Shown piece by piece: positions 21,011 through 47,546 of a stretch of DNA of 64,000 nucleotides. A program made the position numbers and the translations under genes. The DNA comes from Escherichia coli (GTDB taxonomy: Bacteria; Pseudomonadota; Gammaproteobacteria; Enterobacterales; Enterobacteriaceae). Within the stretch, counting starts at the first letter, position 1. Every line of letters starts with the position of its first letter. The notes beneath the pieces were generated by a model. The model searched no databases, was not told the origin of the DNA, and saw only the letters and a list, made by a program, of their open reading frames with translations. The stretch lies in the NCBI RefSeq assembly GCF_003334785.1, contig NZ_QOWV01000002.1. One strand, written 5' to 3'.

Positions 21011-22104
21011 TAACGTCCCTCAAAATCAATACGCGGATCAACCAGCGTATAGCTGATATCACTGACAATATTCAGCAGCAGGCCAATCAGGGTGAAAATA
21101 TACAAGGTACCAAACATTACAGGATAATCGCGCGAGACGGTCGCTTCGTAGCCCAGTAAGCCCAGACCATTGAGTGAAAACATCACCTCAATCAGCAGCG
21201 AGCCGGTAAAAAACATGCTGATAAACGTCGCCGGAAAACCGGCAATCACCAGCAGCATGGCGTTGCGGAACACATGTTTCCAGAGAATATTTTTTTCACT
21301 TACCCCTTTCGCACGCGCGGTCACCACGTATTGCTTGCGCACTTCATCAAGGAATGAGTTTTTTGTCAGCATGGTCAGCGCCGCAAAGCCACCAATCACT
21401 GTCGCCAGCACCGGCAGCGTGATATGCCACAGATAATCGGTGATTTTCTGATACCACGGCAGCGAATCAAAGTTAGCGGAAACCAGGCCGCGTAGAGGGA
21501 ACAGGTCGAAATAGCTGCCGCCCGCGAAGAAGACAATCAGCAGGATGGCAAACAAAAAGGCCGGAATGGCGTAGCCGATGATGATAAATGCGCTACTCCA
21601 GACGTCAAAGCGGCTCCCATTATAAACAGCTTTGCGAATGCCTAACGGAATCGACACCAGATAGATAATCAGCGTGCTCCACAATCCGAGGGTGATGGAA
21701 ACCGGCAGACTGTCTTTAATCAGCGTCAGCACCGAGGCGCTGCGAAACAGGCTATCGCCAAAATCAAAGCGGATGTAGTCCCAGAGCATTTTGAAGTAAC
21801 GTTCGTGGATCGGCTTATCAAAACCGTAGCGATGAGTGATCTCAGCGATCACTTCTGGATCTAATCCGCGTCCGCCACGGTAATTACTGTCGCTGATATT
21901 GCCGACACCCGTTTGCGCATGGCTGGCACGAACACCTTCACCGCCTGCGCCGGGTAATACTCCGGCATTACCAAACTCAATGGCGGCGATGGCCTGGTCG
22001 ACCGGACCGCCAGGCGCAATTTGCACGATGAAAAAGTTGATGGTGATAATCGCCCATAATGTTGGGATCACCAGCAACAGACGGCGAATCAGGTAAGCGC
22101 CCAT
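21010..22104 (-). CDS. yejB: Peptide ABC transporter permease YejB
   Basis: 364-aa OppB/DppB-type permease with a 1-nt overlap with yejE. Confidence 0.94.
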
Positions 22105-34872: not shown

Positions 34873-36564
34873 ATGAAAACGCTGCTGATTATTGACGCTA
34901 ATCTCGGTCAGGCACGCGCCTATATGGCGAAGACCCTGCTGGGCGCGGCGGCGCGAAAAGCAAAACTGGAAATCATCGACAATCCGAACGACGCTGAAAT
35001 GGCGATTGTTCTCGGTGATTCCATCCCGAACGACAGCGCGCTGAACGGTAAAAATGTCTGGCTGGGCGATATTTCCCGGGCAGTTGCGCACCCTGAGCTG
35101 TTCCTGAGTGAAGCCAAAGGCCATGCGAAACCTTACACTGCGCCGGTCGCTGCGACAGCACCAGTTGCCGCCAGCGGTCCGAAACGCGTAGTTGCGGTGA
35201 CTGCTTGCCCGACTGGCGTAGCACACACCTTTATGGCGGCTGAAGCCATTGAAACCGAAGCGAAAAAACGTGGCTGGTGGGTGAAAGTTGAAACCCGTGG
35301 TTCTGTTGGCGCGGGTAATGCAATCACTCCCGAAGAAGTCGCAGCAGCGGATCTGGTGATTGTGGCGGCAGATATCGAAGTGGATCTGGCGAAATTTGCT
35401 GGTAAACCGATGTATCGTACCTCTACCGGTCTGGCGCTGAAGAAAACCGCGCAGGAACTGGATAAAGCGGTTGCTGAAGCAACGCCGTATGAACCGGCGG
35501 GCAAAGCTCAAACGGCGACCACTGAAAGTAAGAAAGAGAGTGCAGGCGCATACCGTCACTTGCTGACGGGCGTTTCTTACATGCTGCCGATGGTCGTTGC
35601 AGGTGGTCTGTGTATCGCGCTTTCTTTTGCTTTTGGTATCGAAGCGTTTAAAGAGCCGGGTACGTTGGCTGCGGCGCTGATGCAGATTGGTGGTGGTTCA
35701 GCCTTTGCGCTGATGGTGCCGGTACTGGCAGGTTATATTGCCTTTTCCATTGCCGATCGTCCGGGCCTCACTCCGGGTCTGATTGGCGGTATGCTGGCGG
35801 TCAGCACCGGTTCTGGCTTCATTGGTGGTATTATTGCGGGCTTCCTGGCTGGTTACATTGCGAAGTTAATCAGTACGCAATTGAAACTGCCACAGAGTAT
35901 GGAGGCGCTGAAACCGATCCTGATCATTCCGCTAATTTCCAGTCTGGTGGTCGGTCTGGCGATGATCTACCTGATCGGTAAACCAGTTGCTGGCATTCTC
36001 GAAGGGCTGACTCACTGGCTGCAGACCATGGGGACTGCGAATGCGGTTCTGCTGGGGGCGATCCTCGGTGGCATGATGTGTACTGACATGGGCGGTCCGG
36101 TAAACAAAGCAGCGTACGCATTCGGTGTGGGTCTGCTGAGTACTCAAACCTATGGCCCGATGGCGGCGATTATGGCGGCAGGTATGGTGCCACCGCTGGC
36201 AATGGGTCTGGCAACAATGGTGGCGCGTCGCAAATTCGACAAAGCGCAGCAGGAAGGTGGCAAAGCCGCTCTGGTATTGGGACTGTGCTTCATTTCGGAA
36301 GGTGCAATTCCGTTTGCTGCTCGTGATCCGATGCGTGTGCTGCCGTGCTGTATCGTGGGTGGGGCGCTGACTGGCGCAATCTCAATGGCGATTGGTGCGA
36401 AACTGATGGCACCGCACGGTGGTCTGTTTGTTCTGCTGATCCCTGGCGCTATTACGCCGGTATTGGGTTACCTGGTAGCAATTATTGCCGGTACGCTGGT
36501 GGCGGGTTTGGCCTATGCCTTCCTGAAACGTCCGGAAGTGGACGCAGTAGCGAAAGCAGCGTAA
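34873..36564 (+). CDS. fruA: Fructose PTS enzyme IIB'BC FruA
   Basis: 563 aa with duplicated IIB domains (TACPTGVAHTFMAAE) and a IIC membrane domain. Confidence 0.96.
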   Translation: MKTLLIIDANLGQARAYMAKTLLGAAARKAKLEIIDNPNDAEMAIVLGDSIPNDSALNGKNVWLGDISRAVAHPELFLSEAKGHAKPYTAPVAATAPVAASGPKRVVAVTACPTGVAHTFMAAEAIETEAKKRGWWVKVETRGSVGAGNAITPEEVAAADLVIVAADIEVDLAKFAGKPMYRTSTGLALKKTAQELDKAVAEATPYEPAGKAQTATTESKKESAGAYRHLLTGVSYMLPMVVAGGLCIALSFAFGIEAFKEPGTLAAALMQIGGGSAFALMVPVLAGYIAFSIADRPGLTPGLIGGMLAVSTGSGFIGGIIAGFLAGYIAKLISTQLKLPQSMEALKPILIIPLISSLVVGLAMIYLIGKPVAGILEGLTHWLQTMGTANAVLLGAILGGMMCTDMGGPVNKAAYAFGVGLLSTQTYGPMAAIMAAGMVPPLAMGLATMVARRKFDKAQQEGGKAALVLGLCFISEGAIPFAARDPMRVLPCCIVGGALTGAISMAIGAKLMAPHGGLFVLLIPGAITPVLGYLVAIIAGTLVAGLAYAFLKRPEVDAVAKAA

Positions 36565-36573
36565 TAAAAGGTG

Positions 36574-36606
36574 TGTTACAGGGCAGAAATTTCCTGTCCT
36601 GTAACA
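36574..36606 (+). terminator. Hairpin directly after fruA
   Basis: TGTTACAGG...CCTGTAACA forms a 9-bp outer stem followed by TTTG, 10 nt after the stop. Confidence 0.6.
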
Positions 36607-36720
36607 TTTGATGAGCGCAAAGAGAATGACCGGTTTGTGAATGTAATTTTATGAATTTAAATGGTTTTATCTTTCAGTAGAAACTTCAAACGTTCATCAA
36701 ACACTCAGGTTATTTCCTCA

Positions 36721-36748
36721 AGGGCAGATTATTTTCTGCCCTTTTTTA
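36721..36748 (+). terminator. Second, canonical intrinsic terminator 155 nt after fruA
   Basis: AGGGCAG-attatttt-CTGCCCT followed by TTTTTTATT. Confidence 0.75.
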
Positions 36749-36986
36749 TTGTTCTGTTCTGTGCATCCCGTCACAAATTCCTCGCTTTTGTAATTCAGGC
36801 ATTTAATCGCATTTTGTGAGCCTGCTCAAATCTGCCCATTTTGCCTCTCTGGCGGTAATTTACTTTACGTAAAACATGCATACTATGAGCACATGTTTAA
36901 ATATGAACACATGTTTAAACCGTCTTTGCAGTATCTATATTCTTGTGGATTGACAGGGTTGGTAATTTTTTACCAGAGGACGTGCT

Positions 36987-37928
36987 ATGCGCGAAAAGGA
37001 TTATGTCGTAATTATAGGTTCGGCGAATATTGATGTCGCCGGATATTCACATGAATCATTAAATTATGCGGATTCAAATCCAGGTAAAATAAAATTTACG
37101 CCTGGTGGAGTAGGGCGCAATATTGCACAAAACCTGGCGTTGCTGGGTAACAAAGCCTGGCTACTGAGCGCCGTAGGCAGTGATTTTTATGGTCAATCGC
37201 TGCTAACGCAAACCAATCAATCTGGCGTTTATGTCGATAAATGCCTGATTGTGCCGGGAGAAAATACGTCGAGTTATTTATCATTACTCGATAATACCGG
37301 TGAAATGCTGGTTGCTATAAATGACATGAATATTAGCAACGCTATTACAGCTGAATATCTCGCACAGCACGGTGAATTTATTCAGAGGGCAAAGGTCATT
37401 GTCGCGGACTGTAATATCAGTGAAGAGGCACTGGCATGGATTCTGGATAATGCCGCCAACGTACCCGTATTTGTCGATCCGGTTTCGGCATGGAAATGTG
37501 TCAAAGTGCGCGACCGTCTAAATCAGATCCACACTCTCAAGCCAAACCGCCTTGAAGCGGAAACCCTGAGTGGGATTGCGCTGTCAGGGCGTGAAGATGT
37601 GGCAAAAGTTGCTGCCTGGTTCCATCAACATGGCCTGAACCGACTGGTATTGAGCATGGGCGGCGACGGCGTTTATTACAGCGATATCAGCGGTGAAAGT
37701 GGCTGGTCTGCGCCGATCAAAACCAATGTTATTAATGTTACCGGAGCGGGCGATGCCATGATGGCGGGACTTGCTTCGTGTTGGGTAGACGGAATGCCGT
37801 TTGCCGAATCTGTTCGTTTCGCACAGGGATGTTCGTCAATGGCGCTCTCCTGTGAATACACCAATAACCCCGATTTATCGATTGCCAACGTTATATCGTT
37901 AGTGGAGAACGCAGAATGTCTGAATTAA
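36987..37928 (+). CDS. psuK: Pseudouridine kinase PsuK (YeiC), PfkB family
   Basis: 313 aa with a GAGGA RBS and the motifs GGVGRNIA and VTGAGDAMMAGL. Confidence 0.93.
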   Translation: MREKDYVVIIGSANIDVAGYSHESLNYADSNPGKIKFTPGGVGRNIAQNLALLGNKAWLLSAVGSDFYGQSLLTQTNQSGVYVDKCLIVPGENTSSYLSLLDNTGEMLVAINDMNISNAITAEYLAQHGEFIQRAKVIVADCNISEEALAWILDNAANVPVFVDPVSAWKCVKVRDRLNQIHTLKPNRLEAETLSGIALSGREDVAKVAAWFHQHGLNRLVLSMGGDGVYYSDISGESGWSAPIKTNVINVTGAGDAMMAGLASCWVDGMPFAESVRFAQGCSSMALSCEYTNNPDLSIANVISLVENAECLN

Positions 37929-38854
37929 AAATTTCCCCTGAATTATTACAAATTTCCCCGGAAGTGCAGGACGCTTTAAAAAACAAAAAACCGGTTGTGG
38001 CGCTGGAATCGACCATTATTTCTCACGGGATGCCGTTCCCACAAAATGCCCAGACCGCAATTGAAGTTGAAGAAACTATTCGTAAACAGGGCGCTGTACC
38101 TGCCACGATCGCCATTATTGGCGGCGTGATGAAAGTGGGGTTAAGCAAAGAAGAAATTGAATTACTGGGTCGTGAAGGGCATAACGTGACCAAAGTTAGT
38201 CGTCGCGATTTACCTTTTGTTGTTGCCGCCGGAAAAAATGGCGCAACCACTGTGGCTTCAACGATGATTATTGCGGCGCTTGCCGGAATTAAAGTATTTG
38301 CCACCGGGGGAATTGGTGGTGTGCATCGCGGGGCGGAACATACCTTCGATATTTCTGCCGATTTGCAAGAACTGGCAAATACTAATGTCACCGTTGTTTG
38401 TGCCGGGGCGAAATCTATTCTCGATTTAGGATTAACCACTGAGTATTTAGAAACCTTCGGTGTGCCGTTAATTGGCTATCAGACTAAAGCGCTGCCTGCG
38501 TTTTTCTGCCGCACCAGCCCGTTTGACGTCAGCATTCGTCTCGACAGCGCCAGCGAAATTGCCCGTGCAATGGCGGTGAAATGGCAAAGCGGTCTGAACG
38601 GTGGCCTCGTGGTAGCGAACCCGATCCCGGAACAGTTTGCTATGCCGGAACACACTATCAATGCGGCGATCGATCAGGCGGTAGCTGAAGCTGAAGCTCA
38701 GGGAGTCATTGGTAAAGAAAGTACGCCATTCCTGCTGGCGCGCGTTGCTGAACTGACCGGCGGTGACAGCCTGAAATCCAACATCCAGCTGGTGTTCAAC
38801 AACGCCATTCTGGCGAGCGAAATTGCCAAAGAATATCAGCGTCTCGCGGGTTAA
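37916..38854 (+). CDS. psuG: Pseudouridine-5'-phosphate glycosidase PsuG (YeiN)
   Basis: 312 aa, overlapping psuK by 13 nt. Recognised IndA/YeiN family sequence. Confidence 0.93.
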   Translation: MSELKISPELLQISPEVQDALKNKKPVVALESTIISHGMPFPQNAQTAIEVEETIRKQGAVPATIAIIGGVMKVGLSKEEIELLGREGHNVTKVSRRDLPFVVAAGKNGATTVASTMIIAALAGIKVFATGGIGGVHRGAEHTFDISADLQELANTNVTVVCAGAKSILDLGLTTEYLETFGVPLIGYQTKALPAFFCRTSPFDVSIRLDSASEIARAMAVKWQSGLNGGLVVANPIPEQFAMPEHTINAAIDQAVAEAEAQGVIGKESTPFLLARVAELTGGDSLKSNIQLVFNNAILASEIAKEYQRLAG

Positions 38855-38947
38855 TTTCTGACGGGCAGAAAGCCGTCGCCCGTACTCATCAAGCATACCA
38901 AAACCTGGCGCTGACGCCGGGTTTACCGGCATGAAGGGAAAATCATT

Positions 38948-40198
38948 ATGGATATAATGAGAAGTGTTGTGGGGATGGTGGTGTTACTGGCAATAGCATT
39001 TCTGTTGTCAGTGAATAAAAAGAGCATCAGTTTGCGCACGGTTGGAGCCGCACTGCTGCTGCAAATCGCTATTGGTGGCATCATGCTCTACTTCCCACCG
39101 GGAAAATGGGCAGTAGAACAGGCGGCATTAGGCGTTCATAAAGTGATGTCTTACAGTGATGCCGGTAGCGCCTTCATTTTTGGTTCGCTGGTTGGGCCGA
39201 AAATGGATGTCCTGTTTGACGGTGCGGGTTTTATCTTCGCCTTTCGCGTACTTCCGGCGATTATTTTCGTTACTGCGCTCATCAGTCTGCTGTACTACAT
39301 TGGCGTGATGGGGCTGCTGATTCGCATCCTTGGCAGCATTTTCCAGAAAGCCCTCAACATCAGCAAAATCGAATCTTTTGTTGCGGTTACTACTATTTTC
39401 CTCGGGCAAAATGAGATCCCGGCGATCGTTAAACCGTTTATCGATCGCATGAATCGCAACGAGTTGTTTACCGCAATTTGTAGCGGGATGGCGTCCATTG
39501 CTGGTTCGATGATGATTGGTTATGCCGGAATGGGCGTACCAATTGACTACCTGTTAGCGGCATCGCTGATGGCGATCCCTGGCGGGATTTTGTTTGCACG
39601 TATTCTTAGCCCGGCAACCGAGCCTTCGCAGGTCACATTTGAAAATCTGTCGTTCAGCGAAACGCCGCCAAAAAGCTTTATCGAAGCGGCGGCGAGCGGT
39701 GCGATGACCGGGCTAAAAATCGCCGCTGGTGTGGCGACGGTGGTAATGGCGTTTGTCGCAATTATTGCGCTGATCAACGGCATTATCGGCGGAATTGGCG
39801 GCTGGTTTGGTTTCGCCAATGCCTCTCTGGAAAGTATTTTTGGCTATGTGCTGGCACCGCTGGCGTGGATCATGGGTGTGGACTGGAGTGATGCCAATCT
39901 TGCGGGTAGCCTGATTGGGCAGAAACTGGCGATTAACGAATTCGTCGCTTACCTGAGTTTCTCCCCATACCTGCAAACGGGCGGCACGCTGGAAGTGAAA
40001 ACCATTGCGATTATCTCCTTTGCGCTTTGTGGTTTTGCTAACTTTGGTTCTATCGGTGTTGTCGTTGGCGCATTTTCGGCTATTTCGCCAAAACGCGCGC
40101 CGGAAATCGCCCAGCTTGGTTTACGGGCGCTGGCAGCAGCAACGCTTTCCAACCTGATGAGTGCGACTATTGCCGGGTTCTTTATTGGTCTGGCGTAA
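38948..40198 (+). CDS. psuT: NupC-family nucleoside (putative pseudouridine) transporter PsuT (YeiM)
   Basis: 416-aa CNT/NupC-family membrane protein, 88.5 % identical to the ORF at 42138-43388. Confidence 0.92.
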   Translation: MDIMRSVVGMVVLLAIAFLLSVNKKSISLRTVGAALLLQIAIGGIMLYFPPGKWAVEQAALGVHKVMSYSDAGSAFIFGSLVGPKMDVLFDGAGFIFAFRVLPAIIFVTALISLLYYIGVMGLLIRILGSIFQKALNISKIESFVAVTTIFLGQNEIPAIVKPFIDRMNRNELFTAICSGMASIAGSMMIGYAGMGVPIDYLLAASLMAIPGGILFARILSPATEPSQVTFENLSFSETPPKSFIEAAASGAMTGLKIAAGVATVVMAFVAIIALINGIIGGIGGWFGFANASLESIFGYVLAPLAWIMGVDWSDANLAGSLIGQKLAINEFVAYLSFSPYLQTGGTLEVKTIAIISFALCGFANFGSIGVVVGAFSAISPKRAPEIAQLGLRALAAATLSNLMSATIAGFFIGLA

Positions 40199-40207
40199 TG
40201 CTCGATT

Positions 40208-40247
40208 TGTAGACCGGATAAAACGTATTAAGCGTTGCATCCGGCAA
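40208..40247. repeat. REP unit after psuT
   Basis: TGTAGACCGGATAAAACGTATTAAGCGTTGCATCCGGCAA. Confidence 0.85.
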
Positions 40248-40268
40248 TCGCGCTATTGAAAATAATTT

Positions 40269-40928
40269 TTACTGCATCATCCCGGAGAATTTATTCTCCG
40301 GGTCCATCTCCAGCGCCAGTCCTGACAACTGCTTTCTGTTTTTAATGAGATATCCTTTCTTGCTTTTAATTAATAAACCGTCGTGAATGAACTGCGCGAG
40401 AACATATAAAAGATGTCGATAAGAAACGCCTAAATACTCTGCCGCTTGCGTATGCTTTTCGTGATAAAGATCACCTTCCTGCGAGAGTAATATAAATGCT
40501 GCCAGGCGATTCACTAACGGAAATGATTGATTCTGAGTTAAAGAAACAATATTACGATAATTTTTATGACTTAAGGTGACGCAGAGTTTTCGTAAAAATA
40601 GCGTGTCGTTTAATAACAGCGGACGGTAATGTTTCATAGGGAGCGCAAGGCACCAACACTCTTCAATAGCCTGCACCGCACGCGGTTCATGGTCTTTATC
40701 GATTAACTCAATCTCGCCAATAAAACAGGGGGCGGCAAAGAAATCGATCAGCGACACGCGACCATTAGCTAGCGTGGCGTAAAGCCTGGCGCGGCCTCGC
40801 GTCAGGTAAAACAGCCAGGACGGCTGTTGCCCTTCCTGCACAATGTAGTCACGCGCTAAAAAATGAAACAGCCGCGTATCGGCTGAAACATCCGTTAAAA
40901 AGCAATCCTTAAACGCGGATTCACTCAT
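40269..40928 (-). CDS. yeiL: CRP/FNR-family transcription regulator YeiL
   Basis: The ATG at 40928 gives the 219-aa [10 protein letters not shown]... form; a GTG at 40967 would add 13 aa. cNMP-binding-like barrel plus a C-terminal HTH ([18 protein letters not shown]). Confidence 0.88.
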
Positions 40929-41096
40929 CAATTGCTGCTTAAGATCATTATTGTGGATTTCTTTCACGATGTTTATCCGCTATGAGATTTCTCATATTTA
41001 GCATACGTACGCTGTTGTTAAGATTCAATCATCGGCCCGGTCGAATTTTCTTTGCTGTAGAAAAAATAACGCAACTGGAAACAGAGGAAATAAACA

Positions 41097-42038
41097 ATGG
41101 AAAAGAGAAAAATTATTCTGGATTGTGATCCGGGTCATGATGATGCTATTGCTATAATGATGGCGGCGAAACATCCGGCAATAGATTTATTAGGCATCAC
41201 TATTGTAGCGGGTAATCAGACGCTTGATAAAACATTAATTAATGGCCTGAATGTTTGCCAGAAACTGGAGATTAATGTTCCGGTTTATGCGGGGATGCCG
41301 CAGCCCATTATGCGTCAACAAATCGTTGCCGATAATATTCACGGTGAAACCGGACTGGATGGCCCGGTATTCGAGCCGCTGACCCGCCAGGCAGAAAGCA
41401 CTCATGCGGTGAAATATATCATTGATACCCTGATGGCAAGCGATGGCGATATCACTCTGGTGCCGGTTGGTCCGCTTTCAAATATCGCGGTGGCAATGCG
41501 TATGCAACCCGCGATCCTGCCCAAAATCCGTGAAATTGTGCTAATGGGCGGCGCTTACGGTACAGGCAACTTCACGCCATCTGCCGAGTTCAACATCTTT
41601 GCCGACCCGGAAGCCGCACGCGTAGTGTTCACCTCCGGCGTTCCATTAGTGATGATGGGCCTCGATCTCACCAACCAGACCGTTTGCACCCCGGACGTGA
41701 TTGCTCGGATGGAAAGGGCAGGCGGCCCCGCCGGAGAGCTGTTCAGCGACATCATGAACTTCACTCTCAAAACGCAGTTCGAAAACTACGGCCTTGCTGG
41801 CGGCCCGGTGCACGACGCCACCTGCATCGGTTATCTGATTAACCCTGATGGCATTAAAACCCAGGAGATGTACGTCGAAGTGGACGTCAACAGTGGCCCT
41901 TGCTATGGGCGTACCGTCTGCGACGAGCTGGGCGTTCTTGGCAAGCCCGCCAATACCAAAGTCGGCATCACTATTGATACAGACTGGTTCTGGGGATTAG
42001 TCGAAGAGTGCGTGCGCGGCTACATCAAAACCCATTAA
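41097..42038 (+). CDS. rihB: Pyrimidine-specific ribonucleoside hydrolase RihB (YeiK)
   Basis: 313 aa with the N-terminal nucleoside-hydrolase fingerprint DCDPGHDDA. Confidence 0.95.
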
Positions 42039-42137
42039 GTGTTGATAACAAGCCGGGCCGGTATCGCAAGATGCAGGCCTGGCTATTTCTGATGGGCAGA
42101 AAGCCGTCGCCCAATATGACATGAAGAGATAATCACT

Positions 42138-43388
42138 ATGGATGTCATGAGAAGTGTTCTGGGAATGGTGGTATTGCTGACGATTGCGTTTTTACTGTCA
42201 GTAAACAAGAAGAAGATCAGCCTGCGTACCGTTGGCGCGGCGTTAGTGTTACAGGTCGTGATTGGCGGCATTATGCTTTGGTTACCGCCAGGGCGTTGGG
42301 TCGCTGAAAAAGTCGCTTTTGGCGTGCATAAAGTGATGGCGTACAGCGACGCGGGTAGCGCATTTATCTTCGGTTCTCTGGTCGGACCGAAAATGGATAC
42401 CTTATTTGATGGTGCAGGATTTATCTTTGGTTTCAGGGTGTTACCGGCAATTATCTTCGTCACCGCGCTGGTGAGTATTCTCTACTACATCGGTGTGATG
42501 GGGATTTTAATTCGAATTCTCGGCGGTATCTTCCAGAAAGCATTAAATATCAGCAAGATCGAGTCATTCGTCGCGGTCACCACCATTTTCCTCGGGCAAA
42601 ACGAAATTCCGGCAATCGTCAAACCCTTTATCGATCGTCTGAATCGCAATGAATTATTTACAGCGATTTGTAGTGGCATGGCCTCGATTGCTGGTTCGAC
42701 AATGATTGGTTACGCCGCACTGGGCGTGCCTGTGGAATATCTGCTGGCGGCATCATTAATGGCGATCCCTGGCGGGATCTTGTTTGCCCGCCTGTTAAGC
42801 CCGGCAACGGAATCTTCGCAGGTTTCCTTTAATAACCTCTCTTTCACCGAAACACCGCCAAAAAGCATTATTGAAGCCGCTGCGACAGGGGCAATGACCG
42901 GGCTGAAAATCGCCGCAGGTGTGGCAACAGTGGTGATGGCATTTGTTGCAATAATTGCGTTGATTAACGGTATTATCGGCGGCGTTGGTGGCTGGTTTGG
43001 TTTTGAACATGCCTCGCTGGAGTCCATTTTAGGTTACCTGCTGGCTCCACTGGCGTGGGTGATGGGTGTGGACTGGAGTGATGCGAATCTTGCCGGGAGT
43101 TTGATTGGACAGAAACTGGCAATAAATGAATTTGTCGCTTATCTCAATTTCTCACCCTATCTGCAAACGGCTGGCACTCTCGATGCTAAAACTGTGGCGA
43201 TTATTTCCTTCGCGTTGTGCGGTTTCGCTAACTTTGGTTCTATCGGGGTGGTGGTGGGGGCGTTTTCTGCGGTTGCGCCACACCGTGCGCCGGAAATCGC
43301 CCAGCTTGGTTTACGGGCGCTGGCGGCGGCGACGCTTTCCAACTTGATGAGTGCGACCATTGCCGGGTTCTTTATTGGTTTAGCTTGA
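42138..43388 (+). CDS. nupX: NupC-family nucleoside transporter NupX (YeiJ)
   Basis: 416 aa, collinear with psuT (368/416 identical by my manual count). Confidence 0.93.
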   Translation: MDVMRSVLGMVVLLTIAFLLSVNKKKISLRTVGAALVLQVVIGGIMLWLPPGRWVAEKVAFGVHKVMAYSDAGSAFIFGSLVGPKMDTLFDGAGFIFGFRVLPAIIFVTALVSILYYIGVMGILIRILGGIFQKALNISKIESFVAVTTIFLGQNEIPAIVKPFIDRLNRNELFTAICSGMASIAGSTMIGYAALGVPVEYLLAASLMAIPGGILFARLLSPATESSQVSFNNLSFTETPPKSIIEAAATGAMTGLKIAAGVATVVMAFVAIIALINGIIGGVGGWFGFEHASLESILGYLLAPLAWVMGVDWSDANLAGSLIGQKLAINEFVAYLNFSPYLQTAGTLDAKTVAIISFALCGFANFGSIGVVVGAFSAVAPHRAPEIAQLGLRALAAATLSNLMSATIAGFFIGLA

Positions 43389-43396
43389 GTGTCATT

Positions 43397-43488
43397 GCCT
43401 GATGCGCAAGCTTATCAGGCCTACATTTACTTGCTGAAATTGCCTGATTTGTAGGCCGGATAAGACGCGTTAAGCGTCGCATCCGGCA
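43397..43488. repeat. BIME after nupX (two REP units)
   Basis: GCCTGATGCGCAAGCTTATCAGGCCTACA (43397-43425) and TGTAGGCCGGATAAGACGCGTTAAGCGTCGCATCCGGCA (43450-43488). Confidence 0.88.
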
Positions 43489-43494
43489 ACATTG

Positions 43495-44583
43495 TTACAC
43501 CATTGGCACTAATGAAAGCGCGTTATCGGCAGACAGGGTAGGGTTGTTTAAGCTGCCGCTGGCGCGCGAAATTGCCGCGCAGGCTACCGCAAAACGGGCG
43601 CTGTCGCGGAAACTGTATCCTTCAAGAAAGCTATATACCAGGCCCGCCATAAAACCATCGTCAGCACCAAAACTGTCTACTGTCGTATGCGCTGGCGCGG
43701 TCAGCAAAAATTGTTCTCCATCCTTTTCGCTGCAATAAACTGACTCATCGGGCAAATAAACAAACAGTTGCTGAACACCTTGCTGATGCAATGCATTCAC
43801 TGCGGTATTACGGTCAGCATCGCTGGTGATCGCCTGTCCCCATAAAATTTCCAGCTCCGGTAAAGTGGGTTTCAGGGTGTGAATATGCACCAGCCAGTGT
43901 TTGATTTTGCCCGCTTTGAATTCTGAAACGGTATCGACAAACACCGGGATTTCATCAGCGAGGGTAAAGACCCATTCCAGCGCCTCGGCTGTCAGGTTGC
44001 AATCAGCCAGTACCACGCCCGCATGACGAAGTAAATCGCGCGACCCGTTCAGTAGTTGCGGTGTCAACTGTTCCAGCAGATGGGTATCGTTAATCGCCAG
44101 CACGGTTTGATCGTCTCGATTGGCAATTGCCAGATACGTCGATGTGCTTTGACCATGCAAACGAACGCAGCCGGAGACATTCACGCCGGCACGGCGCGTT
44201 TCTTCCAGGAGCATTTCGCCATAAAAGTCATCGCCAATCACTGAAAGCAAATGGACGTCACGGCCTAACAGCGCCAGATTGTGGGCGATGTTGCGTCCCA
44301 CGCCGCCCGCTGAGCAATGAATTGTACCGGGATGAGAAGCCGATTGCGGGTAACGGATATCCGCCATCCCGCGAATATCCATATTGATTGTCCCCACCAC
44401 TACGCAGTATTCCTGCTCGGTGAGAATGTAACCTTTGCCTTTAATCCGGCCTTTGCGCATTAAATCCATAATATGCGCCGCAACGCGCGAACGGCTGATT
44501 TGCAGCATGTCCGCAATTTCGTTCTGCTGAATCAGCGGGTTACGCCGTAAAATTGCAAGGATCTCCTTTTCCCGGTTATTCAT
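43495..44583 (-). CDS. yeiI: Winged-HTH + PfkB-family sugar/nucleoside kinase fusion protein YeiI
   Basis: 362 aa. Residues 1-55 look like a MarR/DeoR-type HTH (REKEILAILRRNPLIQQNEIADMLQISRSRVAAHI). The rest aligns with PsuK (GGVGRNIAHNLALLG, VLAIND, ADCN, IPVFVD, IHTLKP, GADDGFMAGL). Confidence 0.9.
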   Translation of the reverse strand: MNNREKEILAILRRNPLIQQNEIADMLQISRSRVAAHIMDLMRKGRIKGKGYILTEQEYCVVVGTINMDIRGMADIRYPQSASHPGTIHCSAGGVGRNIAHNLALLGRDVHLLSVIGDDFYGEMLLEETRRAGVNVSGCVRLHGQSTSTYLAIANRDDQTVLAINDTHLLEQLTPQLLNGSRDLLRHAGVVLADCNLTAEALEWVFTLADEIPVFVDTVSEFKAGKIKHWLVHIHTLKPTLPELEILWGQAITSDADRNTAVNALHQQGVQQLFVYLPDESVYCSEKDGEQFLLTAPAHTTVDSFGADDGFMAGLVYSFLEGYSFRDSARFAVACAAISRASGSLNNPTLSADNALSLVPMV

Positions 44584-44585
44584 CT

Positions 44586-45443
44586 TCAGGCTACCGCTTT
44601 TTCAGTTTGTTGCGCTTTCAGCCAGGCGATCTCTTCTGCCCAGATATCCGGGTTGATGGTTTCGAGGATCAGCGGAATGCCGTCGAAACGGTCGTCCTGC
44701 ATGATCCAGCGGAACGCATCATGACCGATATTGCCTTCACCGAGGCTATGATGGCGGTCAACGCGGCTGCCAAAGGTGCTTTTCGCATCGTTAAGGTGCA
44801 TCCCGCGCAGATACTTAAAGCCGACAGTACGGGCAAAATCCGCGAATGTTTTCTCGCATTCGGCTGGAGTACGCAAATCATACCCGGCAGCGAAAGCATG
44901 GCAGGTATCAATGCAGACGCCGACGCGGGATTTATCTTCCACGCCGTCGATAATCGCCGCGAGATGTTCGAATTTAAACCCTAAGTTACTGCCCTGACCG
45001 GCGGTGTTTTCTATCACCGCTGTCACACCTTGAGTTTTATCCAGCGCAATGTTGATGGATTCGGCAATACGCGCAAGGCAATCCTCTTCTGAAATCTGCA
45101 TCAGATGGCTGCCAGGGTGGAAGTTGAGCAAAGAAAGCCCCAGCTGTTCGCAACGCTGCATTTCATCTATAAAGGCATCGCGCGATTTTTCCAGAGCTTC
45201 AGTGACCGGATGTCCGAGGTTAATCAGATAACTGTCGTGGGGAAGAATTTGCGCCGATGTGTAGTGATATTTTTCACAGGCGGCTTTGAATTCATCGATG
45301 GTTTGCGTCGTGAGCGGTGCGGCACGCCACTGACGTTGGTTTTTGGTGAACAAGGCAAACGCGGTTGCGTCGATTTCGGCGGCGCGAATTGCGGCATTTG
45401 CCAGACCGCCAGCAGCACTAACGTGCGCTCCAATGTATTTCAT
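44586..45443 (-). CDS. nfo: Endonuclease IV
   Basis: 285-aa TIM-barrel AP endonuclease. Recognised sequence [21 protein letters not shown]... Confidence 0.96.
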
Positions 45444-45516
45444 GCGAGGACTCCTGTTAAACCCGCTGGAGGAAAACGGTAATGATAGCGGGTTAACAGG
45501 AGCAAGATGTAGTGGT

Positions 45517-46566
45517 TTATGCGATGACGCTTTGAATCACATAGTTAATCGCACCACCACCAACAATCAGCCAGGCAAACAGTACCAGTGCCATCAGCAG
45601 AGGTTTCGCCCCAGCTTTTTTCAGCGCGCTGACGTGAGTGGTCAGACCCAGCGCCGCCATCGCCATTGCCAGCAGGAAGGTATCCAGCGTTACCAGCATG
45701 TTCACCACGCTCTGCGGTAACAGGTGGAACGAGTTAAAGATGGCAACTACGATGAACAAGATGGCAAACCACGGAATAGTGATTTTGCTTTTCTCGCCGC
45801 TGTTCGCCCCAGACAGCTGTTTAACACGCGCCGCCAGCAGGATGAGGAACGGAGCCAGCATCATCACGCGCAGCATTTTGGAAATAACTGCTGCGTTTTC
45901 CGCATCCGGGCTGATGGCATGACCTGCCGCCACCACCTGCGCCACTTCGTGCACAGTAGAACCAATGTAGATACCGAAAGTTTCCGGACTAAACCATTGA
46001 GACATCAGCGGATATATCGCCGGGTAGAGGAAAATCGCGACGGTCCCGAAGATAACAACGGTTGCAACAGCCACGGTTACTTTACTGGCTTCCGCTTTCA
46101 CTACCGGCTCAGTCGCCAGTACCGCGGCAGCACCACAGATACTGCTACCGGCACCGATCAACCAGCTGGTGTGCTTATCCAGACCAAACACTTTCTGCCC
46201 CAGGAAGCAAGCCAGCAGGAAGGTACTGGACAGCGTCAACACGTCAATGATGATCCCACTGATACCGACATCGGCAATTTGCGAGAACGTCAGACGGAAG
46301 CCATAAAGAATGATACCCAGACGTAATAAATATTGCTTGGCAAACAGCACACCACCGTCACAGCTTTTCCAGATGTGCGGATAGATGGTGTTGCCTAAAA
46401 CCATCCCCAACAAGATTGCGAGGGTGAGGGCACTAAACCCGGCACCCGCAACCGCGGGAATGGAACCACCCCACAGGGCGACCCCGGTGATAACTGCACT
46501 CAGGGCTAACCCCGGAATAAAATGCCACAGTGTACGATGTTGTTTCTGTAAGGTGATATTCGTCAT
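45517..46566 (-). CDS. yeiH: UPF0324-family inner membrane protein YeiH
   Basis: 349-aa polytopic ORF, divergent from the LysR gene yeiE. Confidence 0.9.
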
Positions 46567-46664
46567 AACCCTCTCCTTTAACCGGGCATAAGGTTACGAC
46601 TAACTGGTTTAAAAATAAAATTGATTATATATTTATAATTAATCTTTATAAGTGGTAAGCGACT

Positions 46665-47546
46665 ATGCACATCACCCTCCGGCAGTTGGAAGTTTTTGCA
46701 GAAGTATTGAAAAGTGGATCAACCACCCAGGCGTCGGTGATGCTGGCGTTGTCGCAATCAGCAGTGAGCGCAGCCTTGACCGACCTGGAAGGGCAGCTTG
46801 GCGTGCAACTGTTTGATCGCGTGGGGAAAAGACTGGTTGTTAATGAACACGGGCGGCTGCTCTATCCGCGTGCGTTGGCATTGCTTGAACAGGCGGTTGA
46901 AATCGAACAACTGTTTCGCGAAGACAACGGCGCGATTCGTATCTATGCCAGTAGTACCATCGGTAACTACATTCTGCCTGCAGTTATCGCCCGTTATCGC
47001 CATGATTATCCGCAGTTGCCGATTGAACTTAGCGTTGGGAATAGCCAGGACGTGATGCAAGCGGTGCTGGATTTCCGCGTTGATATTGGCTTTATTGAAG
47101 GACCGTGCCACAGCACTGAAATCATTTCTGAACCGTGGCTGGAAGACGAGCTGGTGGTTTTCGCCGCGCCGACTTCGCCGTTGGCCCGTGGTCCGGTCAC
47201 CTTAGAACAGCTGGCCGCTGCGCCGTGGATCCTGCGTGAACGCGGTTCCGGCACGCGGGAGATTGTCGATTATCTGTTGCTGTCACATTTACCGAAGTTT
47301 GAGATGGCGATGGAATTAGGTAACTCCGAGGCAATCAAACATGCGGTGCGTCATGGGTTGGGAATTAGTTGCCTGTCGCGACGTGTGATTGAAGATCAAT
47401 TGCAGGCAGGCACATTAAGTGAAGTTGCGGTCCCTCTGCCGCGCCTGATGCGTACGTTGTGGCGTATACATCATCGGCAAAAACACCTTTCCAACGCGCT
47501 ACGGCGCTTTCTGGACTATTGCGATCCCGCAAATGTGCCGCGTTAA
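46665..47546 (+). CDS. yeiE: LysR-type transcription regulator YeiE
   Basis: 293 aa with an N-terminal LysR HTH ([34 protein letters not shown]). Confidence 0.93.

Follow-up and report, generated by a model that had tools for sequence, protein, structure and literature searches.

YeiI of Escherichia coli, a winged helix-turn-helix–PfkB protein and candidate pseudouridine-responsive repressor of psuKGT

The ROK repressors NagC, Mlc and XylR combine an N-terminal winged helix-turn-helix (wHTH) with a sugar-kinase fold that serves as ligand sensor, and they are paralogous to active kinases of the same pathway. In BirA, NadR and archaeal RbkR, a wHTH is fused to an enzyme of the regulated pathway, and these proteins are catalytically active. 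Here we analysed YeiI, the product of a y-gene of E. coli K-12, which is encoded in a 64 kb segment of the Escherichia coli chromosome (the window; all coordinates refer to this full stretch) with the gene order fruK-fruA-psuK-psuG-psuT-yeiL-rihB-nupX-yeiI-nfo-yeiH-yeiE-lysP. YeiI joins a wHTH to a PfkB-type kinase domain. The explanation that we favour, at somewhat better than even probability, is that YeiI acts as a one-component repressor of psuK-psuG-psuT (psuKGT) which responds to pseudouridine, has impaired or lost kinase activity and is expressed via nfo, the gene of endonuclease IV.

The closest described protein is the pseudouridine kinase PsuK (PUKI, YeiC; PDB 7VKP, 7VTD, 7VVA), whose gene lies ~6 kb from yeiI. 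E. coli PsuK contacts the ribose through Asn14 and Asp16 and the pseudouridine base through Tyr97, Asn112, Met114, Asn143, Lys170 and Ser30 of the partner subunit; Asp256 is the catalytic base, and Ser/Thr30, Asn143 and Lys170 are hallmarks of the PUKI family (PMC9061257). In PsuK crystals, pseudouridine, and not uridine or cytidine, closes the β-clasp dimer via a contact of Ser30 to N1 (PMC9061257). A probable Mg2+ site comprises Asp164, Asn187, Glu190 and Asp256 (PMC9247573). The function of YeiI has been described as unknown (PMC9061257; PMC12506659); the protein is included in a list of predicted E. coli transcription factors (PMC6055005), and machine-learning tools mislabel it as a pseudouridine kinase (PMC12506659). 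Within our incomplete coverage of the literature, we found no paper on a PfkB-fold transcription factor, on the operator described below or on psuKGT regulation, and none that pairs a pseudouridine kinase with a helix-turn-helix (HTH). ‘YdcI and YeiI’ are mentioned together in a 2019 paper as LysR-type regulators that have been characterised (PMC6698644). YeiI is not a LysR protein, and the name is almost certainly a slip for the neighbouring yeiE, one that could lead text mining astray.

Domain architecture and active-site motifs of YeiI

The original prediction, made from the sequence of the window, had described the product of the yeiI reading frame as a fusion of a wHTH with a PfkB kinase, the wHTH being absent from PsuK. 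The coordinates and the N-terminal peptide that it gave were exact (the frame spans 43495-44583), and the fusion was borne out by Pfam. In YeiI, HTH_24 was detected over residues 1-48 (E 1.2e-10, 41.2 bits, cut-off 21.9) and PfkB over residues 58-348 (E 2e-67); PsuK (313 aa) had PfkB as its sole domain. PsuK 1-306 aligned with YeiI 54-359 at 39% identity. AlphaFold modelled full YeiI with a pLDDT of 87.8 and residues 1-57 alone with a pLDDT of 89.9. Structure prediction had been suggested for the N-terminus, and it yielded helices 3-14, 20-27 and 31-43 and a β wing. In Foldseek, the isolated domain superposed on the DNA-binding domains of MarR, ArsR and Lrp/AsnC proteins with TM scores of 0.8-0.9, among them AdcR, Rv2887, ST1022 and PH0061. 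With a score above the family threshold and three helices plus a wing in the models, this domain is classified as a wHTH. It lacks the RAM and MarR dimerisation modules; dimerisation of YeiI would come from the PfkB β-clasp.

Foldseek matched the YeiI model to PUKI and ribokinases (TM 0.8-0.95). The kinase-like part superposed on the E. coli PUKI crystal structures with a target-normalised TM of 0.94-0.95 and an rmsd of 1.8-2.2 Å. Sequence and structure both place YeiI in the PfkB fold family. In the recognition helix, S30 and R31 were invariant, and S32, V34, A35, I38 and M39 were invariant or nearly so across the whole fusion family. Alternative start codons of yeiI were rejected because R4, E5, I8, L9, L12 and P16 are conserved family-wide. 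The gene was present in 5421/5426 complete E. coli genomes. In NCBIfam, YeiI matched the equivalog NF007416 ‘sugar kinase’ at 811 bits; against the PsuK equivalog NF007355 it reached 255 bits, which is below the cut-off of 540. The bare domain fusion is ordinary and was already known, as precomputed Pfam annotation lists both domains; the functional assignment proposed here is new, specific and testable.

Residues of PsuK map onto YeiI with a constant offset of 53. YeiI retains N67, D69, S83, Y150, N165, N196, K223, D217, E243 and D309, and of these the counterparts of the PUKI hallmarks (S83, N196 and K223) were invariant or near-invariant in the alignment. The GG motif (GGxGxN) is present as well, with G93, G94, V95, R97 and N98 invariant in the family alignment. 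YeiI and PsuK thus share the PfkB fold and the ribose and uracil contacts. They differ in the extra 54-residue wHTH of YeiI, in Thr for Asn187 of the NxxE motif, in PDES for GGDG at the small loop that binds ATP, in Asp for the anion-hole Gly255 and in Thr167 for Met114 (Table 1). The canonical NxxE was not found in YeiI, whereas PsuK and FruK of the same window keep the canonical motifs. We infer that the altered segment is the small ATP loop by analogy to Gly239-Asn241 of AtPUKI (PMC7797080).

The original prediction held that YeiI follows PsuK motif for motif. This is correct for the pseudouridine-recognition residues, which are all kept, but not for NxxE, the small ATP loop and the anion-hole glycine, which are all replaced. 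Likewise, GADD had been noted in YeiI and regarded as still within the PfkB signature. The motif is indeed present as SFGADDGFMAGL, but because the three motif replacements define the YeiI clade, its state is derived and does not count as neutral, signature-compatible variation. The PROSITE PfkB pattern presumably allows [GD]-D at this position.

Judged from these residues, the sensor half of the YeiI site is intact and the phosphoryl-transfer half altered, with added acidic side chains. Because three ATP/Mg/phosphoryl-transfer motifs have changed, kinase activity of YeiI is probably low or absent. A protein that is functional but non-catalytic would agree with three observations. As cited in PMC12506659, a psuK mutant was unable to use pseudouridine although yeiI was intact (Preumont 2008). 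Between two diverged E. coli alleles of yeiI, dS was ~1.7, and dN/dS was 0.07 for both domains, which indicates purifying selection. Finally, yeiI is present in nearly every E. coli genome.

Relatives of YeiI and a predicted operator upstream of psuK

A search of a protein collection yielded 780 relatives of YeiI at E <= 1e-10, and nearly all full-length ones had the HTH-PfkB architecture. Gene neighbourhoods were compared in 80 species-representative genome loci and several contigs, with neighbours mapped by tblastn, and two classes were distinguished. The operon-type class was found outside the Enterobacteriaceae and included Yersinia, Serratia, Photorhabdus, Morganella, Gilliamella, Pasteurellaceae, Shewanella, Vibrio, Aeromonas, Aquitalea, Vogesella and several Firmicutes; its loci span Gammaproteobacteria, Betaproteobacteria and Firmicutes. 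In 65/68 of them, psuG followed immediately 3' of the HTH-PfkB gene on the same strand, often with a nucleoside transporter next, and the three exceptions were second copies in Xenorhabdus. The motifs KPN..E, G..G, G[AGC]GD, DSNPG and NDM were kept in ~66/~66 operon-type proteins. From gene order and motifs, the operon-type fusion is predicted to be the pseudouridine kinase of its operon. Annotations call these proteins pseudouridine kinase, PfkB kinase or wHTH regulator, and they have the appearance of true bifunctional enzyme-autoregulators.

The YeiI class occurred in Escherichia, Citrobacter, Enterobacter, Kluyvera, Leclercia, Yokenella, Phytobacter, Entomohabitans and a metagenome contig that is labelled Klebsiella-like by protein similarity only, and also in one Brenneria and one Affinibrenneria genome. 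In 16/16 YeiI-bearing loci, an HTH-less psuK-psuG-psuT was adjacent and convergent to yeiI. The operon arrangement of a PsuK was not seen for yeiI itself, which lies outside the psuG operon, convergent to psuKGT and 3' of nfo. The Asn of NxxE was replaced by Thr, Ser or Ala (KPT/S/A) in 17/17 YeiI-type proteins but kept in the ~66 operon-type fusions. Every YeiI-type protein had also lost the loop glycines and gained acidic residues, and GxGD read GADD, ASDD or GADE in this clade compared with G[AGC]GD in PsuK and all operon-type fusions. YeiI resembles the operon-type fusions in its two domains, a near-identical recognition helix and the same predicted operator. Unlike them, it stands apart from the operon, has degenerate motifs and lacks an operator of its own, whereas the operon-type genes encode all canonical kinase motifs, lie upstream of psuG and carry their own operator 5'.

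Neighbour-joining of the kinase domains placed the HTH-less PsuK proteins among the Enterobacterales fusions and YeiI in a separate, longer-branched clade. The PsuK and YeiI subtrees had one common internal branching order, which indicates that the two genes were co-inherited.

The likeness of YeiI to the ROK repressors would lie in the pairing of a wHTH with a kinase-fold sensor. The ROK proteins differ in having the ASKHA/ROK fold instead of the PfkB ribokinase fold, and no sequence relationship is known. Of the features that characterise ROK-type regulators (an HTH with an enzyme-fold sensor, lost motifs, action in the same pathway), the architecture, the motif changes and the psuK operator of YeiI fit, and loss of catalysis and regulation would complete the parallel. 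BirA, NadR and RbkR may be the closest analogues of the operon-type HTH-PsuK proteins; YeiI, in comparison, appears to be the non-catalytic half that was left after a duplication split enzyme from regulator.

The Xenorhabdus second copies (L040, L042 and L044) had neither psuG 3' nor a recognisable upstream operator. Their ATP loop was partly altered (LSMDAEG), and KPN..E and GAGD were kept. They may represent an independent duplication heading toward a regulator-only role.

In the operon-type class, AAACA-NN-TGTTT palindromes, usually in tandem, were located directly 5' of the fusion gene, from Shewanella to Firmicutes. The exact sequence AACANNTGTT occurred in 30/68 upstream regions of 120 nt (0.5% expected), and with one mismatch in 48/68 (6% expected), the expected frequencies being taken from the rest of the same loci. 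Among 54 adjacent site pairs in other taxa, 44 had a centre-to-centre spacing of 18-19 bp. We trained a position weight matrix (PWM; consensus ACAAACATATGTTTGT) only on sites of the operon-type class, none of them from Enterobacteriaceae. Its top score in the 64 kb window, 17.0 bits, fell at 36903, next to a 12.4-bit site at 36885. The upstream sequence of E. coli psuK, ATGAGCACATGTTTAAATATGAACACATGTTTAAAC, holds two AACA-NN-TGTT palindromes, and the pair is visible in other YeiI-bearing genera. In 15/16 YeiI-bearing loci, the top PWM match was located 68-270 nt upstream of psuK.

No comparable PWM site was obtained near nfo or yeiI in any of the 16 YeiI-bearing loci. Within the window, strict and PWM scans detected no tandem site upstream of rihB, nupX, psuT, yeiL, yeiH, nfo or yeiI. 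Of the YeiI targets proposed originally, psuK therefore has a predicted operator, but rihB and nupX do not. Isolated matches at 21269 (a yej gene), 43760 (yeiI), 45809 (yeiH) and 46903 (yeiE) were single and coding and were taken as chance; the one at 43760 sits in the yeiI segment that diverges between two E. coli alleles. Rfam gave no match at gathering thresholds over 36500-46700.

All promoters in this analysis are predictions. Where strong sigma-70 promoters were predicted (11 loci), the operator centres were positioned at +2 to +62 in 10, a layout that is repressor-like. The HTH-PfkB protein was the only transcription factor that consistently accompanied the motif across phyla.

In Aeromonas (L062-L064 and L072-L082), the half-sites were rearranged as ATAGACAAAC-N13-GTTTGTCTAT, overlapping the start codon. 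Boxes like GCAAACGTTTGC also occurred in Aeromonas and in some Vibrio loci (L085, Vibrio fluminensis). Such boxes resemble LacI-family operators, and a second regulator may act at these loci.

Table 1. Positions of yeiI, its domains and altered motifs, and associated elements in the window
Feature	Coordinates	Strand	Basis or detail
yeiI coding sequence	43495..44583	-	362 aa + stop; ORF list, RefSeq yeiI ‘sugar kinase’
N-terminal winged helix-turn-helix, YeiI aa 1-54	44422..44583	-	Pfam HTH_24, AF2, Foldseek
PsuK-like PfkB domain, YeiI aa 58-348, proposed ligand sensor	43540..44412	-	Pfam PfkB, PsuK alignment, structure match
Altered NxxE: T240-L-P-E243 (PsuK N187-R-L-E190)	43855..43866	-	alignment
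Altered small ATP-binding loop: Y276-L-P-D-E-S281 (PsuK S-M-G-G-D-G)	43741..43758	-	alignment
G306-A307-D308-D309, SFGADDGFMAGL: Asp for anion-hole Gly255, catalytic Asp kept	43657..43668	-	alignment
Tandem operator predicted upstream of psuK: ATGAGCACATGTTTAA + ATGAACACATGTTTAA, 18 bp between centres	36885..36918	.	PWM scan
psuK-psuG-psuT, proposed regulated operon, convergent with yeiI	36987..40198	+	RefSeq; synteny in 16/16 YeiI-bearing loci
nfo (endonuclease IV), cistron 5' of yeiI	44586..45443	-	Pfam AP_endonuc_2 E 2.8e-68; RefSeq
nfo stop / yeiI start junction, TGA-AG-ATG	44581..44588	-	sequence

A proposed role for YeiI and its alternatives

We hypothesize that the ancestor was a bifunctional HTH-pseudouridine kinase, encoded by the first gene of its psu operon and acting as autorepressor of that operon, and that the gene was duplicated in the lineage leading to the Enterobacteriaceae. 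One copy, psuK, would have lost the HTH and stayed an enzyme. The other copy, yeiI, would have kept the HTH and the pseudouridine pocket, and its three ATP/Mg/phosphoryl-transfer motifs would have changed to a new conserved state. Repression of psuKGT would come from a YeiI dimer bound to the two AAACA-NN-TGTTT palindromes upstream of psuK. Ser-mediated closure of the β-clasp, set off by pseudouridine, would reposition the two HTH domains, so that the DNA is released; dimer closure of the PsuK type would thereby provide a ready-made allosteric switch for two N-terminal HTHs. In Enterobacteriaceae, yeiI, which has no operator of its own, would use the nfo promoter for transcription and coupling to nfo for translation.

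More tentatively, and with less than even confidence, we suggest that a kinase-autorepressor was split by duplication into a pure enzyme, PsuK, and a pseudokinase repressor, YeiI, which reuses the dimer-closure switch and became wired to the SoxS-inducible nfo promoter. Through this wiring, repressor levels would rise under oxidative stress, and the breakdown of modified nucleosides would be dampened.

Such a role would assign to YeiI a candidate operator (36885-36918), a ligand and target genes, and would make the large uncharacterised HTH-PfkB family probable enzyme-repressors of pseudouridine catabolism. If true, it would be the first case in which a family of PfkB-fold transcription factors has a defined operator and ligand, and nature would have supplied a clean instance of duplication parting enzyme from regulator. 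It would also provide a pseudouridine-responsive switch that might serve as a biosensor; the engineering of strains for pseudouridine production is under way (PMC10552469, PMC13090712).

Several points weigh against a pseudouridine-responsive repressor of this kind. In the searchable literature, we found no published experiment on YeiI binding DNA or affecting psuKGT. A match of at least 17 bits occurred in 5/100 shuffles of the window, so the E. coli site taken alone is marginal; what lends it weight is where it lies and that it is conserved from locus to locus. The one consensus promoter match of E. coli puts the two sites at about -37 and -55; the position of the operator relative to the promoter is ambiguous in this species and would also fit activation. 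The operator was assigned to its factor by co-occurrence only. The site counts given above come from related genomes and do not represent independent events, and there is some circularity in the PWM counts for the training clade. The kinase-domain tree put YeiI outside the Enterobacterales PsuK group; besides fast evolution, an older or horizontal origin could account for this placement. Genomic SELEX lists an RpoD holoenzyme site at the nfo/yeiI boundary, with no promoter sequence given (PMC3946193); for this reason, yeiI may also have its own promoter inside nfo. Finally, YeiI keeps D309, Glu243 and Asp217, and its derived motifs are themselves conserved, so it could be an active kinase with altered chemistry.

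This last point leads to the main rival, in which YeiI is a still-active bifunctional kinase-regulator whose TxxE, PDES and GADD motifs retune the substrate, the phosphate donor or the metal (for example, toward another modified pyrimidine nucleoside) and which regulates in response to its own reaction. An active enzyme would account for the retained GG motif, for motifs that are conserved in the clade and not decaying, for the replacement of the base-contacting Met114 by Thr and for the name ‘sugar kinase’ in NCBIfam and RefSeq. The dN/dS of 0.07 on the kinase-like part points the same way, but purifying selection is equally expected for a ligand-sensing pseudoenzyme. Moreover, the three hydrophilic residues of pseudouridine specificity are unchanged, and the changes cluster in the ATP, Mg and anion-hole elements, where they add acidic side chains at the places in which phosphates bind. 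According to PMC12506659, yeiI neither rescued a psuK mutant nor otherwise replaced PsuK in vivo. We consider an active kinase unlikely, although it is the alternative to be taken most seriously. It is improbable, in our view, that the palindromes are bound by another factor or are a promoter or RNA element, with YeiI acting elsewhere or only as a kinase paralogue. Operator binding by YeiI is a prediction, and the GCAAACGTTTGC-like boxes of Aeromonas and some Vibrio loci, with their LacI-family likeness, would fit a different protein. The HTH-PfkB protein is nevertheless the sole transcription factor found consistently with the motif across phyla, the two clades have almost the same recognition helix, in keeping with the motif that they share, and YeiL is absent from most motif-carrying loci. 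As for an RNA element, AU-rich 12-mers with a variable centre make poor hairpins.

The original prediction had left the pairing of nfo and yeiI unexplained. It might be explained by a partnership in DNA repair or oxidative stress, in which YeiI senses or phosphorylates damaged nucleosides or regulates repair genes under SoxS control. The tight junction of the two genes is conserved in most of the Enterobacteriaceae genera sampled, and in resistant E. coli strains yeiI falls into a co-expression module with nfo, zwf, fpr, sodA, fumC, fldA, fldB, soxS and soxR (PMC11446759). However, the association with nfo was absent in Affinibrenneria and in all operon-type relatives, whereas synteny with psuKGT was universal; the partner conserved across genera is psuKGT and not nfo, whose link to yeiI is lineage-specific. 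None of the loci scanned had an operator-like site around the nfo promoter or within the gene, and the ligand pocket is that of a pseudouridine kinase. One Brenneria genome kept the nfo leader 5' of yeiI after deletion of nfo, which could be read as a sign of partnership, but it indicates that yeiI needs the nfo promoter and leader and not the Nfo protein. We regard a repair partnership as highly improbable, and a functional tie of yeiI to DNA repair is not supported. The nfo-yeiI pairing is confined to one family and looks like promoter sharing, which removes the puzzle of a DNA-repair gene paired with a kinase-regulator.

The nfo-yeiI junction, yeiI alleles and neighbouring genes

The 2 nt reported to separate the nfo stop codon from the yeiI start were confirmed: the minus strand reads TGA (44588-44586), AG (44585-44584) and ATG (44583-44581). 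Stop and start were 0-2 nt apart in 12 genome loci; for the alternative E. coli allele (L088) the distance was 3 nt. The junction was thus tight in 13/14 Enterobacteriaceae loci, and only Entomohabitans had a longer gap. On the minus strand, no terminator-like site was found. The Shine-Dalgarno sequence of yeiI in E. coli is weak (-3.2 kcal/mol compared with -6.4 to -6.9 for nfo, psuK and psuG). Taken together with the shared co-expression module, these findings agree with the earlier proposal that yeiI is co-transcribed with nfo and translationally coupled to it, which is likely; the coupling itself we infer from the sequences. A tight stop/start junction is an ordinary operon signature and is not unusual by itself. 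Our search, with its incomplete literature coverage, found no paper on an nfo-yeiI operon.

Affinibrenneria has yeiI without nfo upstream and still facing psuKGT. In Brenneria sp. L3-3Z (L018, 9955-10000), nfo is cut to a remnant of 14 codons, MKYIGAQLNEEATV*. Leader and hairpin of nfo are still there, and 1 nt separates the end of the remnant from the yeiI ATG. The change is a natural internal deletion that preserved the expression signals of yeiI and not Nfo.

Consensus scans for promoters and terminators over 43300-46700 gave counts that were not above those of shuffles, and the one promoter-like site inside nfo (44904-44877, 9/12 match) was unremarkable. The scans speak neither for nor against a possible extra promoter inside nfo. 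A dip in the third-codon-position entropy of nfo at codons 256-280 (0.58 compared with a mean of 0.97; 14 genera) was not used as a sign of an embedded promoter; two Trp codons without synonymous alternative lie there. A read-through fusion of Nfo and YeiI was rejected because the nfo frame reaches a second stop one codon past the TGA.

Between yeiH and nfo (45450-45503, minus strand), we noted a 17-bp hairpin of -25.8 kcal/mol (z -5.9). Its 3' arm contains the nfo Shine-Dalgarno sequence AGGAG, and its 5' arm and loop contain a conserved -10-like TATCAT (AACCCGCTATCAT in most Enterobacteriaceae). To judge from this arrangement, transcripts from the own promoter of nfo would lack the 5' arm of the hairpin, and read-through from yeiH would mask the ribosome-binding site of nfo.

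E. coli yeiI is dimorphic. An alternative allele with ~81.5% DNA identity was present in 2060/5423 complete genomes, and it has the junction TGA-TCG-ATG and the same derived motifs. The divergence spans window positions 43737-44590 (yeiI codons 1 to ~282), beginning at the nfo stop and ending inside yeiI; nfo and the last 240 nt of yeiI were 96-100% identical between the alleles. The divergent segment looks like an old import that persists at intermediate frequency. REP-like palindromes fill the 106 nt (43389-43494) that separate the convergent genes yeiI and nupX, for example GCCGGATAAGACGC / GCGTCGCATCCGGC, and in the alternative allele the identity in that 100-nt bin was 42%.

A yeiL-rihB-nupX block is sometimes inserted between psuKGT and the YeiI-type gene. 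In the window it lies between psuT and yeiI (40269-43388). Across loci L005-L020, the block was found in Escherichia, C. amalonaticus, Yokenella, Entomohabitans and the Klebsiella-like contig and was missing from Enterobacter, Kluyvera, C. youngae and Phytobacter. One Leclercia had it on the other side of psuK, and in E. ruysiae it was without nupX, which is a paralogue of psuT (88% identical).

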